A DNA stretch of 64,000 nt from Blastocatellia bacterium (GCA_035652355.1 DASRDY010000285.1:24300-88299); one strand, 5' to 3'; numbered from the stretch's first letter, positions 8,558 to 53,100 are shown. The notes: a model not told the origin generated them from the letters alone. Program-made: numbers and translations.

Positions 8558-8583
8558 TCGATTACACTGATCTAAACCCAGGA

Positions 8584-8615
8584 AAAAGCCCGGCCAGACT
8601 GGTCGGGCTTTTTCC
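8584..8615. terminator. Likely bidirectional rho-independent terminator between convergent genes
   Basis: AAAAAGCCCGGCCAGACTGGTCGGGCTTTTT forms a GC-rich hairpin flanked by an A-run and a T-run. It sits between the 8557 stop (+) and the mnmA stop at 8737 (-). Confidence 0.5.
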
Positions 8616-8736: not shown

Positions 8737-9882
8737 TTAATTGTGGTTCTTTTCCGCTTCTGTAATCCAGCCGCCGCCGACGACCAGATCGCCATCATAA
8801 AACACAGTAGCTTGCCCCGGTGTGATTGCTCTCTGGGGTTCGTCGAAGACAACTCGGACATTTCCATCGTCGAGCGGACAGATTATCGCGTCGGCTTCGG
8901 CATTGCGATAGCGTATCTTTGCCTTTGCGCGAATTGGCTCGGTTAATCTCGAAATCGAAATCCAATTCACGTTGTTCGCGATCAAGCTGCGAGACATCAA
9001 TTGATCGTTAGTACCAACCACCAGCTTGTTGTTCGAAGTATCCAGCGAAACCACATACAACGGCAACGGATACGAAACCCCAATACCTTTACGCTGTCCA
9101 ATCGTAAATTTATGAATACCTGAATGCCGGCCCAGTTCTTTACCCTCTGCGGTGACTATGTCACCTGGTACTGGTTGCCAGTTTGCTACTTGCTGGTGAA
9201 ACTCTGGCGTGTGATGTTCCTCGTCGCGAACGTAATTCTCAACAAATCGAACGTAATCACCATCCGGTATGAAGCTGATGTCCTGACTCTCTTGTTTTTC
9301 AGAGACGGTAAGATCGTATTTTCGAGCCAGCTCGCGAACCTCAGACTTGATCATTCCGCCCAGCGGAAAGATCACTTTTGCCAGTTGGTTCTGCTTCAGG
9401 TCGAACAGGAAATAAGATTGATCCTTGTTCGGATCAACACCCTTTCGCAGTAAATAGCGTCCGCGTTCCGAATCAAATTCAACACGAGCGTAATGACCTG
9501 TGGCGACCTTTTCGACGCCGATGCCTTCTGCCATTTCGACCAGTTTGGCGAATTTCAACCGGCTGTTGCAGGCTACACAAGGAATTGGAGTGCGACCGCT
9601 CAAGTACTCGGCGACGAATGGCTGGACTACTTCTGTTTCGAACTGTTTTTCTAGATTGACTACATAGAAAGGGAAACCTAATTGTGAGGCGACCGCTCGC
9701 GCGTCATAGATGTCATCGAGTGAACAACAGCGAGATTGCAGCGGCTCGCCGTTTACATCCAGGGCTCGACTGTGATCCCACAGTTGCATCGAAAGCCCGA
9801 CAATCTCATGTCCTTGTTCAAGCAACAGAGCCGCAACCGTCGAACTGTCTACTCCGCCACTCATGGCGACCGCTATCTTCAT
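8737..9882 (-). CDS. mnmA: tRNA 2-thiouridine(34) synthase
   Basis: N-terminal PP-loop [20 protein letters not shown]. Collinear MnmA-like sequence including the catalytic Cys region. Confidence 0.9.
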
Positions 9883-9931
9883 CCTTAAATCCCCCAGGGC
9901 TGATTATAGATAGCGGCGCGATTGTAAGAAT

Positions 9932-10039
9932 GCAGGGGCAGGGCTCGTCCCTGCCCGGATTGCCGCAGGCAATTAAACGTTGTGTTACTCACCGATTTCA
10001 TCGTGCTTCGCACGATTCGGGCAGGGACCCTGCCCCTAC
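9932..10039. other. Highly structured palindromic intergenic element (candidate small RNA, cis-regulatory RNA or REP-like repeat)
   Basis: Two copies of a GGGCAGGG…CCCTGCCC palindrome (9932-9958 and 10018-10039) can also pair with each other. Between them lie perfect small hairpins ATTGCC-GCA-GGCAAT and CGTGC-TTC-GCACG. The element sits between divergent mnmA and the MoxR gene. Confidence 0.3.
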
Positions 10040-10215
10040 AACGTTACCAACGATCGTAATTTCGCATCGATTTGGTGACACCATCTATAATCAGTCATGC
10101 ACTGGTAGCGTCAAACCAGCAATGGTAATATAAAAGTTTCGGTCGGGCAAACTTCGCCTATTTTAAGTTGATGAGCATTGCTCCAAAGTGACAACGATGC
10201 CAAAAACAGGAGATT

Positions 10216-11022
10216 ATGAGAGAGCAGGCAATCGAAAAATATAAACAAACCCACGAGCCTTTTTACATTTCTACTGCCAACGAAACTGACCTTTTCTTAG
10301 CCGCCCATAAAACGAAATTGCCGGTGATGTTGAAAGGTCCCACGGGATGCGGCAAGACGCGTTTCGTCGAATACATGGCTTGGCGTTTGAACCGTCCGCT
10401 TATAACAGTTGCATGCCACGAAGACCTGTCGGCAACAGACCTTGTCGGACGCTATCTGCTTGAGGGTGAAGACACGGTTTGGCACGACGGTCCCCTGACA
10501 ACCGCAGTTAAAAACGGAGCAATTTGCTATCTGGATGAGGTCGTCGAAGCTCGAAAAGACACTATCGTCCTTATCCACCCATTGACTGACGACCGGCGAA
10601 TCTTACCGGTTGAAAAGCTGGGCATCATCCTTGAAGCCCCTGACGAATTCATGCTGGTAGTTTCTTATAACCCGGGTTATCAGAGCGTCGTCAAGGATTT
10701 GAAACAATCGACCCGGCAGCGCTTTGTCAGCCTGGAATTTGATTACCCGAGCGTCACGAATGAAATCGCAATCGTCGCGCGGGAAGGGGGCATTGATGAA
10801 GCGACGGCTCGCGATCTGGTCGTGATCGGGCAAAAAGTGCGTAACTTGAAGGGTCACGGGTTAGAGGAAGGCGTTTCAACGCGTCTTCTGGTCTATGCTG
10901 CTCAATTGATAAGCAAAGGTATCCCTGCGCAGTCGGCATGTGAAGTCGCCATTATGAGCCCAATTACCGACGACAACGAACTCCAGCGGAGTATACGCGA
11001 AATCATAACAACCGTGATTTAG
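10216..11022 (+). CDS. MoxR-class AAA+ ATPase of the CbbQ/NorQ/NirQ type
   Basis: Walker A in [18 protein letters not shown]. Single AAA+ module of 268 aa. Sequence collinear with CbbQ/NorQ. Confidence 0.85.
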
Positions 11023-11025
11023 AGG

Positions 11026-11113
11026 CAGTGGTCGGTGGTCAGTGGTCGGGGATCAGCAAAGAAAATTATTAAAAACTGATCCCTGACCACTGATCACCGA
11101 CCACCGACCACCG
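11026..11113 (+). promoter_or_regulatory. Long near-perfect stem-loop (about 30-bp stem, AT-rich 19-nt loop) between the MoxR and VWA genes
   Basis: CAGTGGTCGGTGGTCAGTGGTCGGGGATCAG – caaagaaaattattaaaaa – CTGATCCCTGACCACTGATCACCGACCACCG. There are 3 mismatches over about 31 bp. It lies immediately before the VWA gene start at 11117. Confidence 0.5.
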
Positions 11114-11116
11114 TTT

Positions 11117-14100
11117 ATGGATAGCAAGAACAAGATCAACGACACACTGAAAAAACACCTGAAAGGTGTCGCTGATTCGACAATCGAGAATTTGAGCGAT
11201 CGCCTTGGCGCGCAATCAGTCGAGCGCACCTGGCTGATGATGGATTTTGGCGCATCGCTGGCCGGTTATTCGCTCCGCCTCGCGGTTGAGTTTCTTCGCG
11301 CGGCCCCTGAAATTGCGAAATACACCGATAACAACGATGTCCGCAAATGGAGTGAAATCGGCAAACGCCTCGCTTCAACTTCGACGGATGTTGCCATCGA
11401 ATTCTTTCAGTCAAGCGTCGCGGTTCTTGCGCCATTAACACCCGCACAGCGGTCGCAGATTCTCGATTTGGTCAATAAGCAGTCGACTTTGTCCGCGAGC
11501 ATTGCGCTTGAATCATTCCGCTCGGCTACCGCTATCATTAAAGAACTGCCCAATGAGGCAGAAGCCAACGAGATCCTCGAGATCTGCTACGAAATCGCGC
11601 GTCATTCGGTCAAACACAGCAGCGATCTATTGAAAGAAGCTCCCGTCGTTACTGCTCATCTCCACAAGCTCGATGGCGGAAGCGGACTCACAGACAAGGC
11701 GTTGAAATTGACAATGGCATTCGCTTTCCGCAGCGGCGGAACGGCGGCCGAGTTTTTTAGTGCATTGCCCGAAGTTCTTTCGACTGATGACAGCGGGTCG
11801 TATTTGCGACTTTTCGAGCATACCAGCATGTTTCTTGAGCGCGGCGGCGGAGTCGCTCTGCAGTATTTCCGCGCCGCCGGAATTGTTCTGAACAACGCCG
11901 GATTGAACGCGTTTGAACGCTGGACCTTGTTATGCCAGTCTGTGGCGGCGCAGGGAAACGCCGCCAGTTATCATTTCCTGAAGGCGAGTCCAAAGATAAT
12001 CACCGACCTGACCGCTCAGGCGGGCAAGCAGAAAGCGTCCGAGCTTATCAACGGCGTGTTGGAAATCGTGGAAGAGGTCGGGCAAAAGAACACCGACGCT
12101 GCCGTCGAGTGTTTCAAGGCCAGTCCTCAGGCGCTACACTCCGCCAGTCTTCAGCAATTTCGCGAATGGGCACTGCGCGGGATCGGTCTCTATGCGAAAA
12201 GCACGCGCCGCGCGCAGGCGTATTATGCGCTGGAATCAAAAAGCAGCCAGGATACGCTTCAGGCTGTTGACGGTGGCTTAACTCTCGAATCGATTGCGCA
12301 AACATTGCGCCTGTATGTTGAAGGTTTGACCGGCCGTGTATTTGTTATCGCTCCTCTTACAGCGATTCCGGACGAAGCCAAAATCGGCGATGGACGCACT
12401 ATCCATTTGCCCTCCGTCGTTGCCGAATTTCCGACCGAAGCCGAGAACTTTCGATTGTACAAGGTTCTTGCTGCGCACGCCGCCGGGCAGGTTGAATTCG
12501 AAACCTACGCAACGAACACTCCGGAATTGTCTGCTGCATTAACCGACGTTATTCAGACTTTTGTTACCGACCCGAGGAAAGTTGCGCAGACAATCGAGCA
12601 AAAAATAAAAGAAGAGCAGGAACGAGCCGCAAACCAGAAAGATTCCAGCAAAAAGAAAACCCGGCAAAACGGTAACGGAACTGCTCTGCAGAATATAGAT
12701 TTCTCTAGAATACTGCGCGAATTTCCGTACCCCGGAGTAGCGACAAGAATCTTTGCAACAATCGAAAACGGCCGAATTGATCGTCGATTGCGTTATGCCT
12801 ATCGCGGGATTCGCAGAGATTTGGATTTCGTTCGCGAGCGTCTGATACAGCGTCGGCCGAGCATTACAGATGTTCCGCCGCAAATGCTGCTGTTCGAGCT
12901 TTTGTTTCAGATCGCTCTTTGCGGTGGCGCGAGCGATGAAGCGCGAATGCATTTCGGCAAAATCATCACCTTGCTGGAAGACACAGTTGAATCGCATATC
13001 AACTCGCCGACAGCGTCGGTTGCAGACACTGTAATCGCCACTTTGCGTGTGTATGAAATGCTGGAAAAGCAACCTGATCAGGAACAATCGAAAGAAGGCG
13101 AGGGCAACGAGAACCAGCAGGACAGCGAAGGTGAAGAATCTTCTTCAGCTGACGCTACGACCGGAGAAGGCAAAGACGCTGCAGATGGAACGGACCCGTT
13201 GTCGTTCTGGACAGTAGATCAGTTGTCGGACTCTTCGCAGGAAGAGAAGACCAGCGCACTGTTTGAGACAACCGAATCGCCGGAGCAGGATTTGGAGCCC
13301 GGCGATAAGGCTTTCTATTACGATGAATGGGATCGCGAGTTAAGCGATTATCGCACGAAGTGGTGTCGGGTGATCCAACGTCGCAGTACGCGTGGCTCTC
13401 GCCAGTTTGTTGAAAAGACCCGAAGCCATTACGCCGGGGTTATCTCCTCGATTCGTTATCAGTTTCAGTTGTTGAAACTGGAGAGTCTGCGTCGCGTGTA
13501 CAACGAACTGGATGGTGAGGATTTCGATCTGCAATCAGTTATTCAATACATAGTTGATCGTCGAACAACCGGCAAAGTGTCAGAGCGACTCTACATTCGG
13601 AAACTTCGTCGCGAACGCGACGTCGCGGTCGGATTCCTTTTGGATATGTCCAGCTCGACTGCGCGAACGGTGGGCCGACACCCGAAACAACCTTATACAA
13701 AACCAGGACAGCGCATTATCGATATCGAAAAAGAAGGACTTGTATTGATGAGCGAGGCCCTGGAAGCCGTAGGTGATGCCTACGCGATGTACGGCTTCAC
13801 CAGTGAAGGCCGCCACAACGTGAAATTCTATGTGATTAAAGAATTTGGCGAACAGTATTCGGCCGAAGTCGAACGTCGCATAGGCGGAATCAGTTATCAG
13901 AACAATACTCGACTTGGCGCTGCGATTCGCCATTCGGCCGCGCATTTGCAGAAAGAATCAGCGCGGACAAAACTGCTGATTATTCTCAGCGATGGTCGAC
14001 CTTACGATCACGATTATGGCGACACGCGTTATGCTCGTGAAGACACAAAGATGGCCTTGCGGCAGGCGCGAATCAGCGGAATCACGCCGTTCTGCATCAC

Positions 14101-14224
14101 GATTGAGCGTGAAGGTGAAGATCAGTTAAAGGACATGTACGGCGAAGTCGGCTATACGATTATAGACAACGTGCTGTCGTTGCCGGAACGCTTGCCAGGC
14201 ATCTATCGCCGACTGACGACCTGA
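11117..14224 (+). CDS. CbbO/NorD-like von Willebrand factor A protein (MoxR partner) with a long helical-repeat N-terminal region
   Basis: C-terminal VWA/MIDAS signature: [16 protein letters not shown]…[12 protein letters not shown]…[10 protein letters not shown]. The preceding 700 aa is a repetitive alpha-helical region. The gene is immediately downstream of the CbbQ-like ATPase. Confidence 0.75.
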
Positions 14225-17442: not shown

Positions 17443-20400
17443 TCAGGCAAACGCCTCGTTGACCAATTGGTGCTGTTCCATCTGGTGGATCGCGTAAACA
17501 CCGGTTGCAGGGCTCGCACTGCGTGCTCGACCAACGTATCTGACCGTGTAACCTTCGGGCAATACTTCATCGATACGCGGACGCACAAAAGTCCAGCCGC
17601 CCATATTCTTTGCCTCTTCCTGAACCCAGCGGAAATCCTTCGCTGAAGTAAAGGTCTTCAGGTAGCGCTCCATCATATTCTTCGGGAAAGGATAGAACTG
17701 TTCCAGGCGAACAATCGCGGTGCCGGTGTCTTTCAACTCCTGCCGTTTTGCATCAAGATCGTAATAAACTTTGCCGCTGCAGATCAGCACACGCTCAATT
17801 TGTGACGGATCCTTCACAATCGAGTCTTCGATGATCGGATTAAATCCGCCACTGGTGAACTCGTCGATTGGTGAAACCGCGTGCGGGTGACGCAGCAGAC
17901 TCTTTGGGGTCATCATTACCAAAGGCTTGCTGGGCGTCTGTTTGATTTGACGTCGCAGCACGTGAAAATATTGGGCCGGCGTCGAACAGTAAACGACCTG
18001 CATGTTGTCTTCAGCCGACAATTGCAGAAACCGTTCCAGTCGAGCGCTGGAATGTTCGGGGCCTTGACCTTCATAACCGTGCGGCAACAACATCACCAAT
18101 CTGCTCTTCTGATTCCATTTTTCTTCGCCTGCCGCGATGAACTGATCGACGATGACCTGAGCAACGTTCACGAAGTCGCCGAACTGCGCTTCCCACAAGG
18201 TCAATGTCTTTGGTGCGGCCACGCTGTAGCCATATTCGAAGCCGAGAACCCCTTGCTCCGACAATGAGCTGTCGAAAATCTCCAGACGCGCCTGGTCCGA
18301 TCTCATCTCTGCCAATGGAGTCCACGGCTGATCCGTCTGCGTATCGAACAGCACCATATGACGCTGACTGAACGTACCTCGACTGCTGTCCTCTCCCGTT
18401 AAGCGCACGGGAGTGCCTTCCAGCAACAGAGCGCCGAATGCGAGTGCTTCGGCAAACGCCCAATCTACAGGTACTTCGCCGGTCGCCATCTTTGCGCGAC
18501 GCGCGAGCAGCCCGACAACTTTTGGATTCAAATGAAAGCCTTTGGGAACGGTTGTCACAGCGCTGGCGATTGTTTGAAGCGTTCCCTGATCGACGTCGGT
18601 TTCAACCGTTTCGGTCTCGGCTTTCTCCTGAATGACGGGCGGGATCGTTATCGGTTGTCGACGGCTGACAATCTCCTTCGCGCCAAGATACGCGTTTTCA
18701 TAACGGCGATTGCGTTCGTCGTTTAATGCGTCGAACTCTTCCTGAGTATAAACGCCTTCTTTGACTAGTTTCTGTCCGTACAACATTCGCACACCCGGAT
18801 GCTCGCGGATGCGCTGGTACATGACGGGCTGTGTGTAGGACGGCTCGTCACCTTCATTGTGACCGTGACGCCGAAAACCAATCAGATCGATGACGACATC
18901 CTTATGGAACTTCATTCGATAGTCGAGCGCGATTCTCATCACATGATACGCGGCTTCCGGATCATCCGCGTTAACATGGAATATCGGGACCTGGATCATC
19001 TTCGCGACATCAGTGCTGTATAGCGATGAGCGAAGTTGCTCTGCCGGCGTCGTAAATCCAATCTGATTATTAACGATAATGTGAATAGTTCCACCGACAC
19101 GATAACCTTTCAGCTGAGAGAAATTCAGCGTCTCCGCCACTACTCCCTGACCGGAGAAGGCAGCATCGCCGTGAAGCAGGATAGGCATTGCCCTGTCATT
19201 GGCGCCATTCGCCCGACCGCCGAACAGCGTGTCTTGTTTAGCGCGAACTAATCCTTCCACTACGGGATCGACAAACTCGAGATGGCTGGGATTGAATGCA
19301 ACCGATAAAGCGATATTTCCGTATTCGGTCTCACGTTCGCCGCTGGCGCCCTGATGGTATTTTACGTCACCCTGATCTGATGGGAAATTTGGATGGACCG
19401 AGCCTTCAAAACTGGTGAAGATCCGCTCGCAGAAATGCCCAATCACATTGGCGATCACATTTAGCCGACCGCGATGCGACATTCCGATGGTTATGTCTTT
19501 GATCTCTCTTTCGGCGGCATGTTCGACCAGTTGATCCAGCAGCGCGACGGTCGTTTCCGTGCCTTCAACAGAGAAACGTTTTTGTCCAAGGTATTTTGTG
19601 CCCAGGAATTTTTCAAACAGCTCCGCCGAAATCAGCTTCCACAGGATACGTTTCCTGACCTCGACCGGTATTTCCGGTCGGGGTTCCTCAATGCGATCGC
19701 GCAGCCAGTCTTTTTCCGCAGGGCTCGAAATATTCCGATATTCAATTGCAATTGTGCCGCAGTATGCCTGTCGAAGTTTGGCTAGAATATCGCGCAGCGT
19801 CGCCTTTTCAACTCTGCCCAACCCGCCAGTGATGAATTCGCGATCGAGATCCCAGATCGTCAATCCGTAATACTCAATGTCCAGCTCGGGATGTTGTTGT
19901 ATGGCGGTGGCGCGGAGCGGATCGATATCGGCGATCATGTGACCGCGAACGCGGTAGGCATTTATCAATTCAATGACGCGAGCCTGTTTCTTAATCTCTT
20001 CCTGCCAGCGGTCGCCGCCAAGCAATGCAGGATTGCGATCAACAGCCCAGCGTAAAGGCTTGAACGGGATCTTCAGGTCGGCAAAGATCTCATCGTAGAA
20101 ATCATGTTTGCCCAGCAAATAGTCGCTAATCAGGGCAAGGAAAGCTCCGGATTCCGCACCTTGCACGATCCTGTGATCATAGGTGCTGGTAATCGTCATC
20201 ACCTTACTTATGCCAAGTTGCGAGAGCGCTTCGGGTGACATTGCCTGATATTCAGCCGGATATTCTATCGCGCCCGTTGCGATAATCAAACCCTGTCCCG
20301 ACATCAACCGAGGATTCGAAGCGTTAGTCCCGATTGTGCCAGGATTGGTCAGGCTTATAGTCGTTCCCTGGAAATCAGACACCTGAATCTTTCCATCGCG

Positions 20401-21102
20401 AGCGCGAAATACAATGTCGTCGTATGCGGCCAGCAATTGCGAAAAGGTGAGATGATTCGCGCCTTTGATATTCGGCACGAGTAACGTTCTGCTGCCGTCG
20501 CTTTTCGTCAGATCGATTGCTAATCCAAGGTTCACCTCAGATCGCTTTACTCGAAAAGCGCTCCCGTCGATAGCTTCGTAACCATCATTGAGCTGCGGGA
20601 ATTTCTGCAATGCCTTGATAATCGCCCATGCGATCAAATGAGTGTAAGAAGCCTTGCGTTTGCCATCGTGCTGTAATTGTTCATTGATCAAACGGCGATT
20701 TTCTTCCGCAACTTTCAATGGTATGTGTCGCTGCGAAGTCGCTGTCGGAACAGCAAGGCTCTGCTCCATATTCTCGGCGATCTTTAATGCGCCGCCTCGG
20801 ATGGGTACTTTGTCGCCCTCAAGCGAAATCTCTGCTTTTGGCGCAGGCCTGGTTTGAACCGGAGCAGGCGCTGACGCGACCGGTTCTGTTTTGGCCGCTC
20901 CTCCCCCGTTGGTCTCGCGCTTTGCTTTGCGGCTTGCTCCATCACTGTCGATAAGTCTTTCGAAATATTCGCGCCACTCTTCATCCACCAGCGCGGGATT
21001 TGCCTGAAATTGACTCAACAATTCTGCGACGTACGAGGCATTCGAGCCGAACTCAGCATCGATGATCTGAGTCAAGTCTGGTTCTTTCTGTCGTCTAGCC
21101 AC
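17443..21102 (-). CDS. kgd: Multifunctional 2-oxoglutarate decarboxylase/dehydrogenase E1 with fused E2-like N-terminal segment (KGD/OdhA type)
   Basis: 1,219 aa. The N-terminus MARRQKEPDLTQIIDAEFGSNASYVAELLSQFQANP… matches actinobacterial-type Kgd, followed by an Ala/Pro-rich linker, an E2 catalytic-like region and the TPP-dependent E1 core. Confidence 0.9.
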   Translation of the reverse strand: MARRQKEPDLTQIIDAEFGSNASYVAELLSQFQANPALVDEEWREYFERLIDSDGASRKAKRETNGGGAAKTEPVASAPAPVQTRPAPKAEISLEGDKVPIRGGALKIAENMEQSLAVPTATSQRHIPLKVAEENRRLINEQLQHDGKRKASYTHLIAWAIIKALQKFPQLNDGYEAIDGSAFRVKRSEVNLGLAIDLTKSDGSRTLLVPNIKGANHLTFSQLLAAYDDIVFRARDGKIQVSDFQGTTISLTNPGTIGTNASNPRLMSGQGLIIATGAIEYPAEYQAMSPEALSQLGISKVMTITSTYDHRIVQGAESGAFLALISDYLLGKHDFYDEIFADLKIPFKPLRWAVDRNPALLGGDRWQEEIKKQARVIELINAYRVRGHMIADIDPLRATAIQQHPELDIEYYGLTIWDLDREFITGGLGRVEKATLRDILAKLRQAYCGTIAIEYRNISSPAEKDWLRDRIEEPRPEIPVEVRKRILWKLISAELFEKFLGTKYLGQKRFSVEGTETTVALLDQLVEHAAEREIKDITIGMSHRGRLNVIANVIGHFCERIFTSFEGSVHPNFPSDQGDVKYHQGASGERETEYGNIALSVAFNPSHLEFVDPVVEGLVRAKQDTLFGGRANGANDRAMPILLHGDAAFSGQGVVAETLNFSQLKGYRVGGTIHIIVNNQIGFTTPAEQLRSSLYSTDVAKMIQVPIFHVNADDPEAAYHVMRIALDYRMKFHKDVVIDLIGFRRHGHNEGDEPSYTQPVMYQRIREHPGVRMLYGQKLVKEGVYTQEEFDALNDERNRRYENAYLGAKEIVSRRQPITIPPVIQEKAETETVETDVDQGTLQTIASAVTTVPKGFHLNPKVVGLLARRAKMATGEVPVDWAFAEALAFGALLLEGTPVRLTGEDSSRGTFSQRHMVLFDTQTDQPWTPLAEMRSDQARLEIFDSSLSEQGVLGFEYGYSVAAPKTLTLWEAQFGDFVNVAQVIVDQFIAAGEEKWNQKSRLVMLLPHGYEGQGPEHSSARLERFLQLSAEDNMQVVYCSTPAQYFHVLRRQIKQTPSKPLVMMTPKSLLRHPHAVSPIDEFTSGGFNPIIEDSIVKDPSQIERVLICSGKVYYDLDAKRQELKDTGTAIVRLEQFYPFPKNMMERYLKTFTSAKDFRWVQEEAKNMGGWTFVRPRIDEVLPEGYTVRYVGRARSASPATGVYAIHQMEQHQLVNEAFA

Positions 21103-30059: not shown

Positions 30060-31055
30060 CTATTTTTCCTGTTTAGCCTCGGTTACGAAGCGTTTGTAAT
30101 CACTGAATTCGACCGTTGAGTCCGCCGACACACGATCAAAAAGTGTCGGATAGTCAGCGGCATTCAGACGCATTATGTGCGGTAACCAAGTCCCGTCCGG
30201 CAACCTGATCATATCCACATAAATTGGTGGAGCGATCTTGTCCGACAATTTCGCGTTACCCATTGCATTACCCGAACTGGCCGGCCAGCCAACCAGCTTA
30301 CTGACGATTCGATCCTGTTTATCGATCCATATTTCGCCTTTTAATTGCGATATATACTTCATAGCTTCATCCAGCTTGGCGTCGGCTCGTGGAGCGAAGC
30401 TGAAAACCAGCGTTTCGCGACCTTCGACTTGCTCCTGGCGAATCAGTTTCAGATCGCAGGAGCTCAGGAATATCCCAATACCAAGTCTCGCGCTACCTCT
30501 GCTAAATCCAAATACGCTGCTGTTGGTACTAAAGCTTGAATACGATCCTATAGGATGCATTCCCTTTATATCAGTCGGTTTGTTGTTCGATGCCGGCACG
30601 GATTTATGCGCGATCTTCTCTTCTTCCTTCTCCAGTCGCTCTCCTGCCTGCCTTCGCTCCTTTTCCAGTTCTTTACTGTCAACCGGGACACCGTTGTGGC
30701 TAACTGCCAACAGAATTCCACTCGCACTGGTTCCGTTCTTAAGAGTCGGAAGGTAAACCTCGAATAAGGTCGACTCTTCCTTGGCTTCACCCTTTTTATT
30801 GCGTTCGCGTTTTGTGTTTTTAAGGTTGTAAGTGAATTCTGTCAGGGCATCGCCGGCGCCTTTGCATGCAGCCTCTTTTACCAGAGCAGGGATATCAATA
30901 TCGCCCTCGACAGAAGCCGGAACGACGCCTTCGCAGATTTTGGGTATCGGGCTCAAGGGTTTGCCGAGATTGACTTTGACCCCCTGACCATCGGTAACAA
31001 TCGCGAGTAAGAGGATTGCAGACAGCATCTTGCTGACGATAATGGAATAACGCAT
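30060..31055 (-). CDS. Hypothetical secreted protein
   Basis: N-terminal signal peptide (MLSAILLLAIV…). Charged KE-rich linker. No known domain recognised. Confidence 0.5.
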   Translation of the reverse strand: MRYSIIVSKMLSAILLLAIVTDGQGVKVNLGKPLSPIPKICEGVVPASVEGDIDIPALVKEAACKGAGDALTEFTYNLKNTKRERNKKGEAKEESTLFEVYLPTLKNGTSASGILLAVSHNGVPVDSKELEKERRQAGERLEKEEEKIAHKSVPASNNKPTDIKGMHPIGSYSSFSTNSSVFGFSRGSARLGIGIFLSSCDLKLIRQEQVEGRETLVFSFAPRADAKLDEAMKYISQLKGEIWIDKQDRIVSKLVGWPASSGNAMGNAKLSDKIAPPIYVDMIRLPDGTWLPHIMRLNAADYPTLFDRVSADSTVEFSDYKRFVTEAKQEK

Positions 31056-47162: not shown

Positions 47163-50100
47163 ATGAAGACATTGATTCGTCGTTTTGGATTCACCAGATT
47201 TGTTGTTCTGACGTTATGCATTACGTTCGTGTTGGTGCTGGTCAAGCGTGAATCAATGGTCCTTGCAACCAGCCTGTTTCATGCGGCGACATCGGGTCGC
47301 ACCCAAACCAAGGACAATACCCAGGCTAAAGATCACACTCAGCTTAAAGTTCTGAGTTCTGTCAAAGTTCGGCCGACATCTATAGCGAAGCCGATGATCA
47401 AGCTTCAGGACAGTCGCGAGCTTTCATCTGACAGCGCGAGCGCTGTGGGTACATCGCATCAATCACTGGCGCTTAACTCGCCCATAGCAGGCTCGCTCAG
47501 ACCTGCCGATTCGATTTATAGTTCTCTGCGGCAAGCGGGCGCACGGCCGCTCGCCCTGGCGACTGCGGATATTAATCGGGACGGATTCCCCGATCTGATT
47601 ACAGGCTACGCGACTTCCGGGGGCGGAGTATTGATGTTGCGGTGGGCCAACGAGCAGGCCTATGCTCCCAGCGATCCGGCTGTCCTCGAAGGTATTAGAC
47701 AGCGCCGGTTTCCCAATCCATTCTTTGATGATGGGGCCACGATCGAACTGCCCGAAGCTCCTGATTTTGTATTAACCGGTGATTTCAACCATGACGGCAT
47801 AGTGGATGTTGTGGTTGCCGCCAAGGGCAGCAATGCGTTCTACCTCCTTGCGGGGGATGGACTGGGCGGATTTTCCGCTCCGACGCGCAAAGAATTGCCA
47901 GGCGCGGTAACGGCAATGACTGCGGGAGAGTTCGGCGCCCAGGATGGCTCGATGGACCTTGTTATAGGCGTCAATGGCTCCGGGGGATCTTCAGTACTGA
48001 TTTTCGATAAACACGAGAGCATTATCGATTCCACTCCTGAGGTTCGCGGTATATCAGGGTCGATCACGACATTGGCGCTGGGTTCACTTGATGGCGATCA
48101 ATTCAACGATCTTGCCATACTGGCGGGAGGCAGGCTGAGTGTTCTGCACGGCCAGGATCGCCTGGAAGGAGTGGATTCAGCAGCGACAGCCAGGCTTGAG
48201 AGCATTCCGTTATCGTTTGCTCCTAAATCATTTTCGCTGGGGAATTTCATCTGGGACCGTGAGGATAAGACTGAGATAGCCGTAATGTCGGCCGATAATC
48301 AGGTTCACATTCTTGCCCGCGGCAGTCTTGACGTTCGTCCCTTTACAGAAGAGGAAGTTCTGGCGAGTCGCAAGGACAAAGAAGCAAAAACCATTGCGAT
48401 GGCGAACGGTACTTATGTCGCGCCGGTTCTGAGCCAGTCGGCGGCAAACCAAAAATGGGCAATTGCGGAAGATGTTCCGGTTGAATCGACTGGAGTCGGC
48501 AATTCCGCGCCAATCCTGCTTACCACCAGAATGTCCTCCGTTCCTGCGGATGATCTGCTGGTCAAGGTTCCTGGCGGCACCCAAATTCAGGTTATGTACA
48601 AAGACACGAATCAGTCGGTAACTCGTAGCCGCACCAGCGGACGAGTGATGACTGGTAGAACTCCCGTGACGCTTGATTCAGCCAGCGAACCAGTCGCGGT
48701 ACTGCCGATGCGGGTCAATGTCGATGGTCGACCTGGTCTGGTTGTAATGAGCCAGGGTAATGTGACCGCTTCAGTTATAATGCCTGAAGGCGGCACCACC
48801 ATCACGGTCAACTCTGCCACGGACGTTATTCACAGTCCCGGATGCGCAACGACTGGCACAGGTACTTGTTCGCTCAGGGATGCGATTATCTTCTCGAACG
48901 CCGATACGGGCGCCGCAGATACGATTGTTTTCAGCGTTGGTATTAATCCAACTTTAACCATATCCAGTGGAGGCGCGGCGGAAAACAATGCGCAATCCGG
49001 AGATTTGGACATTAATCGCAGTGTTACCATAACCGGGAATGCTCCTACGACAGTCAGTACTACGTTCGATAATACCTGCGGCGACTGCAAGGTTTTCGGA
49101 ATCGATCAGACGGGTTTATTCCCTGGCGAGACTGTAAGTATGTCTGGTCTTACGATCCAGAATGGTGTTAATCACGGAAACGCAGGTTCGATTTGCGGTA
49201 CGTTCTTCGAAACGGGCGGCGGCATTGACGTCTTTTTCAAATCCTCTGGAAATTCCTTCACGTTGACGAATTCAACAGTAACAAACAATAGAACCGACCT
49301 TTGTGTGGCTGCCGGGCAGCATAGTCACGGCGGTGGCATCAACATCGATAGCAATAATCAGGCAATTGTAGGGGGCGCCAGCGCCGGTACGGCAACATTA
49401 ACTAATGTTACAGTCAGCAATAATATCGCGGGTCTTCAGGCTGGCGGAATTGGTCTTTTAGCGGACGTCCACAACGTGAACTTGACCAACGTTACAATAA
49501 CTGGCAACCAGAGCCAGCATTCAGATGGAGGCGGAGTATTCGTTTTACACAGCTTTGGTGGAACCGATACGTTTTCCAACGGATCGGTCTCGAGTAACAC
49601 GTCAGATGGGATAGGCGGTGGAGTTGAAATTGACGGTAATCAGGTAGTCAATTTTACAGGGACGACTTTTACCAGCAATACCGCCACTGGCACCGGCGCG
49701 AGTTCATTGGGCGGTGGGCTTGCCATTACCAACATTGGAGCGGCAGGCGTTACCGGAAGCACATCATTAACGAACTGCACCATAGATAGTAACCACGCCA
49801 ACAACGGCGCAAATTCAGGTGGTGGTGGTGTCTATTTCAACGGGGGTTACTCGTTGACTATTTCCGCCTGCGATATTAAAAACAACACCGGCGGTCAGGG
49901 TGGGGGTATTTTCAACGGTGGCAGCAACAGCTCGCCTGGCAGCACTGTAACGATAAATAATCTGACACTTATACACGGCAATTCAGCCGTCACCACTGGC
50001 GGTGGCAACGGAGATGGCGGAGGTATTGCAAACGGCCAAATCGGTGGAGCTGGGACTCAGTCTGGAACCATCGTAACCAAAACTCATATATTCGGAAACA

Positions 50101-53100
50101 CGGCGGCTAACAATGGTGGTGGTATCGCAGTTGGTCCTTTGACTAATGGAGCGACGTTTTCGATGAGCTTTAGCCGAATTGTTAATAACACTTCTAACGC
50201 TGCGACCAATCACGGAATCGAGGTTAATGGCACGAACGCAGTTGCGAGTGTGGCCGACAACTGGTGGGGTTGTTCGCAGAATCCGATCGGCAGTACTCAG
50301 TGCGACTCTGCGCACGCGACATCCGGAACGCTGACGGTTACCCCATTCCTGCAGATCACCAATTCGGCGGCGCAGAATCCGATTAAAGTTGGAGCAACCA
50401 CGACTCTGACTGCTACGGTTCAGGATTCGAACGGAATAAATCAGTCGTCAGCCAATTTGGACGTCTTTATTACCAGCAATGCAACCGCTGGAACCCCGTT
50501 GCCTGTAACCTGGAGCGCTGCGACAAACTCAATCACAATTGACGCGAACAGCTCGCCGCTTAAGAACGTCGGCGGAGTCGTTCAGGTGACGGCCACATAT
50601 AACGGGACAAATCCTGTGCATCATGATCCGGCGGCGGCCAAGGTCGATAACGATTTCACGACCGGATCGCATCCGAATGTGGTTTTGATGACTGTCCTCT
50701 CGCCGCCTAGCATTGCAAAAGCGTTCGGATCGCCAAATGTTGCGATAAACGGTGCACCAAACACGACGACTTTGACGTTTACGATAACAAACCCGAATGT
50801 GGGCGACGGGTTGAATGGACTTGCGTTTACAGATACCTTCGCGCCTGGCGCGGCAAATATCAAAGTCGCATCTCCGCCCAATGCATCGACCACTTGCGGC
50901 GGCGGAACGGTGACGGCGGTTGCAGGCTCAGGCTCCGTTTCATTGAGCGGTGGCACGATCGGCATAAATACTACTTGTACCGTTACCGTCACTGTTCAAG
51001 GCCAAGCTCCTGACGGTACAGCTAATAACACCAGCGGGAATGTTACGGCCACCGATGCGGGTGGTTTGACTGGCAACACTGCCAGTGCCAGCACGCTTGT
51101 GGCCGATGCGCCAACTATCGCAAAACTATTCGGCGCCGCTACAATACCGCTGAACGGCACCACGTCGTTGACATTCACTCTTCAGAATACGAACGCGAAT
51201 ACAGCGCTGAGCGGAGTCGCGTTTAGCGACACTCTGCCCGCTGGATTGACAGTCGCTACCCCAGGAAACCCGAGCACCAACTGCCCAGGCGGAACTGTTA
51301 CCGCTACGAATGGGTCATCGAGCATAACCCTCTCGGGTGCATCGCTCGCAACCGGGGCAACTTGCACTGCAACGGTTACCGTTCAGGGAACAACAGCCGG
51401 AGTGAAGAACAACACGGCATCCGCTTCATCTACGACTACGGGTGCTCTTACTAATTCGACAGGTACGGTTCCAATAACAGTTGTGGCGCCGCCGACGATC
51501 AGCAAGGCATTCGGTGCGCCCAGCATACCATTGAACGGCACGACAACGATGACCTTCACGATTACCAATCCGAATACCACGGTTGGTTTGAGTGGACTCG
51601 CATTTAGCGACACATTCCCATCAGGTCTGCAGGTGGCAGCGACACCGGGCGTGGTCAATAACTGCAACGGGACCTTCACTCCGGCAGCAGGTGATACTAC
51701 GGTCAGCCTCTCAGGAGGGACGGTCGGTACCAATACCTCCTGTACTATCACGGTTAATGTAACCGGAACAACAGCAGGTGCGATGGCGAATATAACCGGA
51801 GCGATTTCGTCGACCGAAGGCGGAACGGGCACAACCAGCAACACGGCAACGCTCAATGTGTTTGCGCCTCCTACAATTTCCAAGGCGTTTGGTGTCTCGA
51901 CGATAGCGGTCAATGGTACGACATCTCTCACCTTCACAATTACAAACCCGGCCTCGAATCCAGGGGCATTGACAGGTATTGGTTTTACCGATTCTCTGCC
52001 TGCGGGACTGGTGGTCGCGACGCCTAATGGGTTGTCAAACACTTGTAATGGTACAGTGACGGCGGTCGCCGGATCAGGTTCGATAACCCTGAATAACAAC
52101 GGCAGCATCACCACTCCTGGTACTACCTGTACGATCCAGGTAAATGTTACCGGCACCACTTCCGGGGTGAAAAACAACACAACCGGTGCTATATCATCGA
52201 CCAATGGCGGAACCGGCGCAACCAGTAACACTGCCACTTTGACGGTCGCATCGCCGCCGACTATTAGCAAGGCTTTCGGCGCGGCGACGATTCCGCTAAA
52301 CGGCACAACGTCAATGACGTTCACGATCAGCAATCCAAACTCGATTGGACTAACCGGTCTTGCGGTTTCGGATACTCTTCCGGCAGGTTTGGTTGTTGCA
52401 ACTCCGAACAACCTGAGCAATTCATGTAATGGCAGCGTGACGGCTACATCGGGTACAAATTCGGTGAGCCTGTCTGGCGGCACGATAGCGGCCAGTCCTG
52501 CTACCTGTACAGTGTCTGTAGATGTTCAGGGCACAACGGCCGGTGTGAAGAGCAACACTACTACCGCAATCACTTCTACTGAAAGCGGACCCGGCACAAC
52601 CAGCAACACCGCGACAGTAACAGTGGTAGCACCGCCTACAATCAGCAAGGCGTTCGGCGCTGCCAGTGTGGCGGTCAATGGCAGCACGACGTTGACATTC
52701 ACGATAAGTAATCCTAACGCTACAGTCAGCCTGACGGGCCTGGCATTTAATGACAGCTTCCCGTCGGGTCTTCAGGTAGCATCGACACCTGGCGTCGTCA
52801 ACAACTGCGGTGGGACCTTTACTGCGAATGCTAATGCGACATCTGTGAGCCTGTCGGGTGGCACGGTTGGTACTGGCGGGTCGTCGACTTGTACAATAAC
52901 AGTCAATGTTACCGGTACATCGGCAGGCGCGAAGGCCAATACTACTGGCGCAGTCTCCTCGACTGAGGGCGGAACCGGCGCAGTCAGCAACACCGCGACA
53001 CTAAACGTGTTTGCTCCGCCGACGATCAGCAAAGCATTTGGTACTAGTCAGGTCCCGCTCGGTGGAACTACGACCCTGACCTTTACGATCACTAATCCGG

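Follow-up and report, generated by a model that had tools for sequence, protein, structure and literature searches.

The locus analysed here lies in a 64-kb stretch of DNA from a soil-dwelling member of the Blastocatellia (64,000 nucleotides, the window) and consists of a gene for a MoxR-type AAA+ ATPase and a gene for its VWA partner, separated by a long stem-loop (Table 1). The question that it raises is whether this hairpin serves to adjust the amounts of the two proteins. A first-pass annotation had suggested that it may act as an intercistronic attenuator, an RNase processing site or a translational brake for a pair that needs defined stoichiometry; as judged from the sequences compared below, the hairpin is not a conserved regulator of the gene pair.

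Table 1. Features of the cbbQ-VWA locus, with positions counted from the first nucleotide of the window
Feature	Position	Strand	Size or sequence	Basis or remark
mnmA (tRNA 2-thiouridylase)	8737..9882	-		Pfam tRNA_Me_trans, E 1e-72; divergent from cbbQ
cbbQ/norQ-type MoxR AAA+ ATPase gene	10216..11022	+	268 aa, TAG stop	AAA_5 + CbbQ_C
Hairpin, left arm	11026..11056	+	~4 tandem heptamers: GTGGTCG GTGGTCA GTGGTCG GGGATCA	Tandem Repeats Finder, period 7/14, inverted-repeat pair
Hairpin, loop	11057..11075	+	19 nt, 17/19 A/T, CAAAGAAAATTATTAAAAA	Sequence and fold
Hairpin, right arm	11076..11113	+	~5.3 heptamers: CTGATCC CTGACCA CTGATCA CCGACCA CCGACCA CCG	Tandem Repeats Finder, inverted repeat
Long-form NorD/CbbO-family VWA partner gene	11117..14224	+	1,035 aa	
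Predicted N-terminal alpha-helical repeat (solenoid) region	11117..12226	+	aa 1-370	AlphaFold2; less confident helical region then to ~aa 650
NorD-like finger, VWA/MIDAS domain and C-terminal tail	13283..14221	+	aa 723-1035	phmmer alignment to NorD 9qhd_G, 9qh6_G

The ATPase, its long VWA partner and the search for a client

The gene identities proposed in the first-pass annotation, a CbbQ/NorQ-type AAA+ protein and a VWA/MIDAS partner, were supported by Pfam and by matches to NorD and CbbQ structures. In the ATPase, Pfam detected AAA_5 (E 4e-35) and CbbQ_C (E 6e-34), the Walker A (GPTGCGKT) and Walker B (YLDEV) motifs are readable in the translation, and solved structures were matched closely (CbbQ 5c3c, E 2e-108; NorQ 9qh4, E 9e-100; 6l1q, E 2e-99), in such a way that the AAA_5 core, the CbbQ/NirQ/NorQ C-terminal domain and the near match to solved members place it in the CbbQ/NorQ subfamily. 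A protein annotated in a Blastocatellia MAG (P0121) is 100% identical to it. The divergent mnmA is the sole cbbQ neighbour kept across most of the Blastocatellia loci examined, the mnmA(-)/cbbQ(+) arrangement being found also in L067, L068, L071, L076 and L078 and not in L082. Amber read-through of the cbbQ stop by a tRNA(CUA) in the window was considered and rejected, because TAG closes 10 of the 29 window ORFs and thus has no specific tie to cbbQ.

The sole Pfam domain of the partner is the C-terminal VWA. Its residues 723-1034 align with residues ~340-640 of NorD (9qhd/9qh6, E 1e-48), and the alignment (9qhd_G and 9qh6_G, NorD residues ~340-643) spans the MIDAS motifs, the C-terminal tail and the finger region, which in Paracoccus NorD comprises residues 403-448 (PMC13036017). 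The columns of the DMSSS, TRLG and SDGRP motifs and of the C-terminal tail are invariant in 20 homologues. In NorD/CbbO-family VWA partners this conserved tail contacts the ATPase. The intact MIDAS (DxSxS...T...D), the finger insertion and the tail assign the protein to the NorD/CbbO family and to neither member specifically: there is no sequence match to NorD before residue 723 and there are no NOR genes in the window or in the related loci examined, while the gene neighbourhood, without Rubisco/cbb genes in the window, does not identify it as CbbO. Distant long-form relatives returned automatic "NorD" or "VWA" labels alone, and the "NorD" names of relatives at JGI/UniRef are likewise automatic annotation.

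The N-terminal region matched nothing in Pfam or NCBIfam. AlphaFold2 modelled aa 1-350 with a pLDDT of 77-92 and the C-terminal half with a pLDDT below 50, and a Foldseek search of the model against the PDB returned designed helical-repeat proteins alone, none at E <= 0.001. The start codon is backed by alignment with the homologues of L074 and L075 (MDxKxKINDTL), and no Shine-Dalgarno sequence is found in the 12 nt between the stem and this ATG.

The partner had also been described as unusually long, which is correct with respect to characterised NorD (638-646 aa) and CbbO and incorrect within its own family, given that the 120 best homologues all measure 1,013-1,098 aa. Among the best 150 of the 4,347 relatives found at E <= 0.001 in a library of 1.84 billion proteins, lengths of 900-1,150 aa predominate. 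A length of about 1,000 aa is normal for this family, and the long-form NorD/CbbO-like partner with N-terminal helical repeats represents a large family in which no experimentally characterised member was found here.

Concerning the client, the statement that Rubisco, NOR and CODH are lacking was upheld by Pfam analysis of the 29 window proteins, which detected no metalloenzyme client. The comparison of 11 window genes with 66 loci by tblastn revealed no conserved neighbour except mnmA beside cbbQ and no client, no metalloenzyme client was detected in the Nitrospira locus L066, and no norCB, cbb/Rubisco or cox genes were found near the window pair. The client of the long-form VWA family is not identifiable from gene neighbourhood.

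The hairpin, its junction in relatives and its class

The near-perfect stem-loop with an AT-rich 19-nt loop reported earlier was confirmed, the arms being inverted 7-nt arrays with the repeat unit GTGGTCR (Tandem Repeats Finder). Positions 11028-11056 pair with 11076-11104 in a 29-bp stem with 27 Watson-Crick and 2 G.U pairs on the + strand, and three more outer pairs carry the pairing out to 11024-11110. The left arm begins 4-6 nt past the cbbQ stop, in a ++ gene context; the right arm mirrors it unit by unit, including the order of the unit variants, carries TGA in all three frames and leaves its last 9 nt outside the stem. The stem had been said to end 3 bp before the VWA start codon, which is true of the heptamer array, whereas the paired stem stops 6-12 nt before the ATG. 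RNA folding corroborated the hairpin, the 94-nt spacer reaching -61.9 kcal/mol versus -23.4 ± 3.6 for 200 dinucleotide shuffles, none of which was as good (z = -10.8), and it is the most stable 3'-flank structure among 28 window genes.

This structure does not qualify as an intrinsic terminator, as the 29-bp stem is followed by CGACCACCGTTTATG, with three T only, and the terminator scan omits it; classic U-tract terminators lie elsewhere in the window (8581-8615, and after the genes at 30060, 31245 and 38039). Nothing promoter-like emerged in the spacer from a consensus scan, and a promoter within the AT-rich loop was discarded on the same grounds. Rfam 15 at the gathering threshold gave nothing at the hairpin, its sole match in the window being a tRNA (58787-58858). 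All four matches to GGTCGGTGGTC in the 64 kb fall within the hairpin, which is the only array pair found there by Tandem Repeats Finder and motif search, and the motif, unique in the window and with neither tag nor target-site duplication, does not qualify as a REP/RAYT or MITE element.

The same junction was then compared in relatives. The scan of genome collections yielded 66 loci, none of them from Blastocatellia with cbbQ beside the VWA gene, which were reused for the hairpin census described below; the metagenome scan with the VWA N-terminus gave one locus, L074, and a homologue search with the N-terminal 250 aa gave no further close relatives with DNA. In L075, whose CbbQ is 92% identical, the two genes are separated by 9 nt, in L074 by 17 nt, and in L078-81 the cbbQ stop overlaps the VWA ATG by 1 nt; none of these junctions has a hairpin or folds better than shuffled sequence, and the hairpin is also absent from L082. 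Inserts of 115-136 nt occupy the junction in L067 and L068, the former with a hairpin of unrelated arm sequence (z = -3.7) and the latter with a weak, non-significant fold (z = -1.8). A third candidate for a long insert is P0129, the closest relative by CbbQ (95% identical), with a 122-nt gap after cbbQ, 28 nt (4 x 7) longer than the spacer of the window. Since the neighbour-joining tree of CbbQ, ((window,(L067,(L074,L075))),L068), places L067 beside L074/L075, the presence of a hairpin is patchy in this subclade, which is thinly sampled with about six lineages.

A further 54 Blastocatellia loci, each with 2 kb or more of sequence ahead of the VWA gene, all lack an adjacent cbbQ, and in the 7.92-Mb contig_540 cbbQ (L071) and the VWA gene (L018) lie about 648 kb apart. 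Because the two genes are unlinked there, most members of the class must set the Q:VWA ratio without an intercistronic element, and detection of ATPase/VWA pairs and their clients by adjacency will fail in most Blastocatellia.

Many unrelated genes have a hairpin of like construction behind their stop codon. In a census of about 0.94 Mb from Blastocatellia, 62 long hairpins were counted, 23 with periodic arms, of which 14 have period 7; apart from that of the window, the other 22 are in related genomes. They are intergenic, their repeat units vary from site to site and they nearly always lie directly against a stop: of the 14 between tandem genes, 13 are nearer the upstream stop (mostly within 8 nt) than the next start (sign test, p ~0.002). 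Among periods not divisible by three, 7 is the most frequent, with 74 arrays (35 have period 6 and 32 have period 8), and an inverted partner within 250 nt accompanies 44 of the 101 arrays of period 7, 14 or 21. The consensus units are diverse, 45 in 48 arrays, with few that recur (e.g., TGGTCRG, CTGAAAA and GAGAATT). An ACTGA core is present in 7 of the 48 units versus 1.4% of random heptamers, and the right arm in the window reads ACTGATC / CCTGACC / ACTGATC. In the 120 nt past the VWA stop, structures with z < -3 were found in 9 of 62 loci, an undercount since hairpins longer than 120 nt (L002 and L051) are clipped. Both stem mismatches of the window hairpin are G.U on the sense strand (n = 2), and those of the class, 21 G.U vs 16 A.C, give a null result for selection at the RNA level in what is a low-power test. 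The TGGTCRG unit also flanks the VWA gene in the distant genomes L010, L009, L002 and L016, an unexplained recurrence that hints at something more specific.

These comparisons do not sustain the idea of a dedicated stoichiometry regulator: the hairpin is absent from the junctions in L074, L075 and L078-81, the genes are unlinked in 54 loci and similar hairpins stand behind unrelated genes. Absence from orthologous pairs, which the first-pass annotation had set among its refuting conditions, is largely what was found, the hairpin of L067 being unrelated and the fold in L068 weak and not significant.

Origin and possible effect of the hairpin

Starting from what is demonstrated for the hairpin (its anatomy and class, the hairpin-free state of the nearest orthologous junctions, and the missing U-tract, promoter-like site and Shine-Dalgarno sequence), we consider it somewhat better than an even bet that it is a young, locally generated repeat palindrome inserted in a formerly tight junction, one of a sporadic class, with any effect on expression a by-product. 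The ancestral junction would have been of 0-17 nt, without a Shine-Dalgarno sequence and probably translationally coupled, and the inverted arrays, (GTGGTCR)~4 and a complement of about 5 units, would have arisen locally and recently in the lineage of the window, as one case of the fast-turnover palindromes that appear directly behind stops in Blastocatellia. Since both arms carry, in mirror image, the odd unit GGGATCA and the same succession of variants, they probably originated by slippage followed by inverted duplication or template switching. Transcription must presumably read through the hairpin, because the VWA ORF is intact without signals of its own, and the hairpin would therefore block it only in part, if at all. 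In the folded state (-62 kcal/mol), about 17 unpaired nt would remain between the cbbQ stop and the VWA start, equal to the hairpin-free spacer of L074, suggesting that a self-folding insert is of a kind tolerable at such a junction. On balance, the hairpin probably protects the cbbQ 3' end to some degree and somewhat lowers VWA expression; a lower VWA output would suit a Q6:VWA1 complex, yet as a by-product and not as a conserved design. From sequence, the hairpin of this one lineage could plausibly alter read-through, mRNA decay or translation of the VWA gene. Observations that count against the palindrome reading are the long inserts at this junction in L067 and L068, the two sense-strand G.U mismatches of the stem, its first rank in stability among the 3' flanks of the window and the TGGTCRG unit beside distant VWA genes.

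A selected intercistronic attenuator or mRNA-stability element, in which partial termination or a block to 3'-5' exonucleases leaves cbbQ mRNA in excess for a 6:1 complex, is unlikely, even if several data agree with it. The stoichiometry CbbQ6:CbbO1 is established (PMC4660213) and NorQ hexamers bind a single NorD each (PMC13036017), the stability of the hairpin is extreme, the VWA gene lacks a Shine-Dalgarno sequence or promoter-like site of its own, L071, where the genes are unlinked, has a 13-bp hairpin after cbbQ (z = -4.6), and the inserts in L067 and L068, of which only that of L067 folds significantly, could reflect selection instead of a mutational hotspot. Against this stand the hairpin-free junctions (L074, L075, L078-81 and L082), the unlinked genes of most Blastocatellia, where the ratio is normally set otherwise, the like-built hairpins behind many unrelated genes and the absence of a sense-strand G.U bias in the class. 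A broader version, which we hold quite unlikely, takes the inverted heptamer arrays as Blastocatellia-wide, evolvable 3'-end or intercistronic "dimmer" elements: 7-nt slippage behind stops would alter stem length and thereby tune read-through, RNase III cleavage or re-initiation downstream, and the window element would set the CbbQ:VWA ratio once the two genes became linked. If so, the long inserts in L067, L068 and possibly P0129, together with TGGTCRG beside distant VWA genes, would be marks of selection. The same non-conservation counts equally against an RNase III site, cutting the 29-bp duplex and parting the two mRNAs, or a translational brake on the VWA gene, a pair of options that we judge decidedly improbable. 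The stem exceeds the roughly two helical turns of duplex that RNase III typically needs, and its base lies close to the VWA ATG; nevertheless, the start codon and the 6-12 nt ahead of it are unpaired in the minimum-free-energy fold. For Haemophilus, the pairing of a heptanucleotide repeat with an RNase III-targeted hairpin has been reported (PMC12721329).

A small mobile palindrome of MITE or REP type, inserted between the genes, would explain the insertion-like pattern, with close relatives having 9-17 nt at the junction, and the presence of the heptamer TGGTCRG in other genomes. Such an insertion is nonetheless very unlikely, as the motif is confined to the hairpin within the window, the arm sequences vary from site to site, there is neither a target-site duplication nor a unique terminal inverted repeat, and the GTAG/CGTC tag reported for RAYT-associated REPs (PMC3733652) is lacking; moreover, a local origin is suggested by the likeness of the right-arm unit CCGACC to the L074 spacer (GCCGACCGCACC), which has no hairpin. 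An element acting as DNA (a cruciform, a protein-binding array or a replication/recombination hotspot), for which the RNA hairpin would be irrelevant, fits the symmetry of the arms as DNA, the absence of strand bias in wobble-compatible mismatches and the capacity of G-rich heptamer arrays to form G4 or cruciform structures (PMC4692102). This is highly improbable, given the strong preference of such hairpins for the stop of an upstream gene in the same orientation, which indicates a cause in the transcript or in coding constraint. To our knowledge, no protein binds such hairpin arrays. An assembly artefact is scarcely credible: assemblers can create palindromes, and that of L003 (1-247, 111-nt arms at a contig end) looks such a case, but the hairpin is internal to a long contig and identical in two other assemblies, L076 (ENA) and L077 (Logan, SRR5581483). 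The latter ends within the right arm, illustrating that short-read assemblers break at such hairpins.

With the locally generated palindrome as the preferred reading, it would be wrong to count the hairpin among the conserved regulatory features of AAA+/VWA chaperone operons. In Blastocatellia, a class of soil bacteria that is abundant yet little studied, annotators will meet the many stop-abutting inverted-heptamer hairpins repeatedly.

Comparison with known systems

The protein pair resembles NorQ/NorD and CbbQ/CbbO (PMC13036017, PMC9976466, PMC4660213) in the ATPase, matched at E ~1e-100, and in a partner with finger, MIDAS and tail. It differs in the lack of norCB, cbb/Rubisco or cox genes nearby, in being encoded by genes that are unlinked in most Blastocatellia, and in the ~720 residues that precede the finger/VWA module, compared to ~340 in NorD and ~550 ahead of the VWA domain in CbbO (PMC4660213). 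Unlike in NorD, the first 370 residues form a predicted alpha-solenoid without detectable similarity to the NorD N-terminal domain. By analogy, a hexamer:monomer stoichiometry is expected for the pair of the window.

REP/BIME and other intercistronic stem-loops stabilise upstream mRNA segments, as in E. coli malE-malF, and the window has likewise a stable stem-loop without U-tract between presumably co-transcribed genes whose products are needed in unequal amounts. REPs come in many copies with a conserved sequence and a tag, whereas the hairpin described here occurs once in the window, consists of tandem heptamers and is not kept at the orthologous junction.

Among heptamer repeats, those of the cyanobacterial STRR type are also intergenic. 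The TAACTGA heptamers of Beggiatoaceae, Cyanobacteria and Bacteroidetes are nearly all direct and mostly located just upstream of starts, only 1 of 170 sets being inverted (PMC4679880). The repeats of the window are similarly intergenic, with stops in all three frames and an ACTGA core, but they form an inverted pair abutting a stop codon.

The described parallel for the Blastocatellia hairpins is so far mainly that of Xanthomonas, where GGGAATC heptamers form 70-75 inverted pairs, transcribed and located preferentially between ORFs of the same direction, no more than 50 bp from a stop codon (PMC4692102), in arrays of typically about 4 units that can form stem-loops and in some cases overlap the stop codon (Rehm et al. 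2015, PMC4692102). The window shares with them a close inverted pair of 7-nt arrays, with period 7 in both arms, intergenic between co-oriented ORFs and less than 50 bp from the stop. Whereas in Xanthomonas a single G-rich unit, potentially able to form G-quadruplexes, serves throughout the genome, Blastocatellia have no single dominant unit (45 units in 48 arrays) and carry many that vary between sites.

The ATPase and its VWA partner

The ATPase encoded upstream of the spacer showed near-equal matches to the solved CbbQ 5c3c (E 2e-108) and NorQ 9qh4 (E 9e-100), and a CbbQ protein identical to it is included in the annotation of a Blastocatellia (Acidobacteriota) MAG. Two solved NorD proteins align over their residues ~340-640 with residues 723-1034 of the VWA protein (E 1e-48). 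The match takes in the finger region and MIDAS motifs and also the C-terminal tail, the part of NorD that contacts the ATPase (PMC13036017). The domains and the matches to solved proteins bear out the identities proposed in the first-pass annotation, an AAA+ ATPase and a VWA/MIDAS partner, and the pair belongs to the NorQD/CbbQO kind. The VWA partner was rejected as NorD or CbbO proper, with mismatches both in the N-terminal region and in genomic association.

The same annotation had called the VWA partner unusually long. This holds in comparison with characterised NorD (~640 aa) and with CbbO, in which about 550 residues precede the VWA domain (PMC4660213), but not within its own family, for which ~1,000 aa is normal. 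The best 120 homologues all have 1,013-1,098 aa, and those named by taxon come from Blastocatellia or other Acidobacteriota. A library of 1.84 billion cluster representatives contained 4,347 relatives, with 900-1,150 aa as the prevailing length among the best 150 of them, and a Nitrospira locus encodes a 1,011-aa version. AlphaFold2 predicted with confidence an alpha-helical repeat region at aa 1-370, for which comparison with PDB structures returned a resemblance to designed helical-repeat proteins alone.

No client enzyme was found among the window proteins or at the Nitrospira locus, and the domain survey of the window agrees with the earlier statement that no obvious client is encoded there. 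The window contains transporters, a large Ig-like/beta-helix protein, mnmA, a DinG-like helicase, an MscS-like channel, a fused 2-oxoglutarate dehydrogenase, histidine ammonia-lyase and type IV pilus genes, among others, and in other loci none of these genes is a conserved neighbour of the VWA gene. The domain fusion of the dehydrogenase resembles the OdhA/Kgd arrangement of Actinobacteria. The window also encodes a tRNA labelled tRNA-Pyl by ARAGORN, whose position 8, read by eye, is A where U is usual. It would read UAG and is possibly an amber suppressor of natural origin; UAG has not been recoded in this genome, as TAG terminates 10 of 29 long window ORFs, cbbQ among them.

Coordinates of features in the window and in retrieved loci (L numbers, loci from other assemblies or genomes)
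Feature	Locus	Position	Strand	Remarks
Textbook bidirectional intrinsic terminator (GGAAAAAGCCCGGCCAG / CTGGTCGGGCTTTTTCC)	Window	8581-8615		After 1,445-aa Big_3_5/DUF11/beta-helix gene
TGTAGGGGCRG palindrome	Window	9919-10052		mnmA-cbbQ intergenic; imperfect 25-nt inverted repeat
CbbQ/NorQ-type ATPase gene	Window	10216-11022	+	268 aa; AAA_5 and CbbQ_C domains (Pfam)
VWA partner gene	Window	11117-14224	+	1,035 aa; C-terminal VWA is the sole Pfam domain
2-Oxoglutarate dehydrogenase	Window	17443-21102	-	1,219 aa; E1 domains fused to E2-type acyltransferase catalytic domain
Giant ORF	Window	47163-56924	+	3,253 aa; TAG stop
Long imperfect palindrome	Window	56929-57029		5 nt past the giant ORF's TAG; 44-nt arms, 73% complementary, no U-tract
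tRNA, anticodon CUA	Window	58787-58858	-	Canonical-looking; Rfam 63.5 bits
TGTAGGGGCRG palindrome	L006	2990-3088		
TGTAGGGGCRG palindrome	L018	5742-5836		
TGGTCRG array	L010	9022-9056		4 nt past VWA stop; almost identical to left arm of window hairpin
TGGTCRG array	L009	2318-2352		
TGGTCRG array	L002	3312-3346		
TGGTCRG array	L016	3923-3985		
CTGAAAA array	L051	9026-9175		After VWA stop codon; unit of L067 hairpin
VWA gene	L067	9056-12062		Split into two called ORFs (415 + 604 aa); probably a frameshift error in the assembly
Contig-end palindrome	L003	1-247		111-nt arms; probably an assembly artefact

The spacer hairpin and the orthologous junctions

In the 94-nt spacer between both genes, 29 base pairs in succession (27 Watson-Crick, two G.U) enclose a 19-nt A/T-rich loop; the folding energy is -61.9 kcal/mol (z = -10.8 with respect to dinucleotide shuffles). 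Both arms are tandem 7-nt arrays (GTGGTCR, equally read as TGGTCRG), and the order of the unit variants is mirrored between them, including the odd loop-adjacent unit GGGATCA, which points to duplication, in inverted orientation, of an array whose units had already diverged. Two further assemblies, represented by L076 and L077, contain an identical sequence, ruling out an assembly artefact, in such a way that the stem-loop noticed at first reading can be taken as real.

Several identities were rejected for this hairpin. The stem is followed by TTT alone, in contrast to the classic U-tract terminators found elsewhere in the window, so the canonical form of an intrinsic terminator is absent; the bidirectional terminator in the table shows that this organism uses U-tract terminators. 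The motif has no further copy in the 64-kb window, against a high-copy REP or MITE, and no known RNA family matched the hairpin. A scan of the spacer found no promoter-like site.

Comparison of orthologous gene pairs, the check put forward at first reading, did not show the hairpin to be conserved. The spacer has 9 nt in L075, whose CbbQ is 92% identical to that of the window, and 17 nt in L074, and in L078-81 the stop codon and the ATG overlap by 1 nt. The L067 junction (~115 nt) has a hairpin made from other heptamers (CAGTTTK/CTGAAAA; z = -3.7), and that of L068-70 (136 nt) a weak fold only (z = -1.8). In the CbbQ tree, with topology ((window,(L067,(L074,L075))),L068), hairpin presence varies, which indicates that hairpins at this junction have been gained or lost repeatedly. 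No Shine-Dalgarno sequence was found before any VWA start codon in the linked-gene group and, together with the variation among its junctions, this suggests that the ancestral junction was tight, with translational coupling probable. On the JGI 3300047160 contig of the closest CbbQ relative (P0129, 95% identical), the gap to the next gene is 122 nt, 28 nt (4 x 7) above that of the window, and could hold the window's hairpin with extra heptamers.

Among the loci examined, adjacency of cbbQ and the VWA gene is confined to the subclade of the window and L078-81. In none of the 54 Blastocatellia loci that extend 2 kb or more upstream of the VWA gene was cbbQ present beside it, and on one 7.92-Mb contig (contig_540, CAWDRU010000002.1; loci L071 and L018) both genes lie ~648 kb apart. 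Pairing of MoxR ATPases with VWA partners by adjacency would consequently overlook unlinked Blastocatellia pairs. The divergent mnmA/cbbQ pair is kept in most Blastocatellia loci examined.

Periodic hairpins in Blastocatellia

Within the window and the fetched loci, together ~0.94 Mb of non-redundant Blastocatellia sequence, a census returned 62 long hairpins, 23 of them with periodic arms, with period 7 in 14 and 8-10 in the others. The repeat unit changes from site to site, as in L016 (TTGTCAY, arms of 61 and 102 nt), L013 (GAATTTC), L033 (AGGGACT), L034 (GGGGCCA) and L037 (CAGGGTY). These hairpins sit between genes, and in tandem contexts the upstream stop codon is closer than the following start codon for 13 of 14, usually at 8 nt or less and with overlap of the stop in some cases. 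Period 7 is the most frequent array period among non-multiples of three, an inverted partner was found within 250 nt for 44 of 101 period-7/14/21 arrays, and an ACTGA core is enriched about ten-fold among the heptamer units. The window hairpin matches this class in all tested respects.

At orthologous positions the class turns up sporadically. Structure with z < -3 within 120 nt after the stop was present in only 9 of 62 orthologous VWA 3' flanks, an undercount because hairpins longer than 120 nt exceed the span folded. The window's own unit is found again directly before or after the VWA gene at four loci in distant genomes, and the CTGAAAA unit of L067 after the VWA stop in L051 (table); these recurrences may reflect sampling bias, since all the loci are centred on this gene, or a true association. 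A separate type of palindrome, non-periodic and marked by TGTAGGGGCRG, recalls GTAG-tagged REPs and was detected in the window and several other Blastocatellia loci.

Possible consequences of the insert and published parallels

The VWA reading frame, intact and conserved, has neither a promoter-like site nor a Shine-Dalgarno sequence of its own, so the hairpin would have to be transcribed through. Once folded, the helix would leave ~5 + 12 unpaired nt between stop and start, near the 17-nt spacer of L074, and because of this resemblance a self-folding insert would be a type of insertion tolerable at a coupled junction. The hairpin may shield the cbbQ 3' end and reduce VWA output, compatible with the Q6:VWA1 stoichiometry derived from CbbQ/CbbO work (PMC4660213). 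In relatives, however, the genes overlap or are unlinked, so any effect on cbbQ or VWA output is treated here as a by-product. A dedicated attenuator or stabiliser is considered unlikely. That the stem serves as an RNase III processing site appears more doubtful still. At the class level, the stem mismatches (21 G.U versus 16 A.C on the sense strand) showed no sense-strand G.U excess, and thus no sign that an RNA fold rather than a DNA palindrome is maintained. As a conserved design, the regulatory role first proposed for the hairpin finds no support: several linked relatives are devoid of it, and the genes are unlinked in most Blastocatellia.

The window hairpin belongs instead to a class of repeat palindromes with published precedent, and is specific to its lineage. 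The TAACTGA heptamers known from Beggiatoaceae, Cyanobacteria and Bacteroidetes repeat almost always in direct orientation (PMC4679880), whereas those of the window are inverted. Its nearest published parallel is provided by the GGGAATC heptamer repeats of Xanthomonas, with 70-75 inverted pairs per genome, located between co-oriented ORFs at 50 bp or less from stop codons, which are transcribed and where transcript starts and stops are more frequent than at control repeats (PMC4692102).
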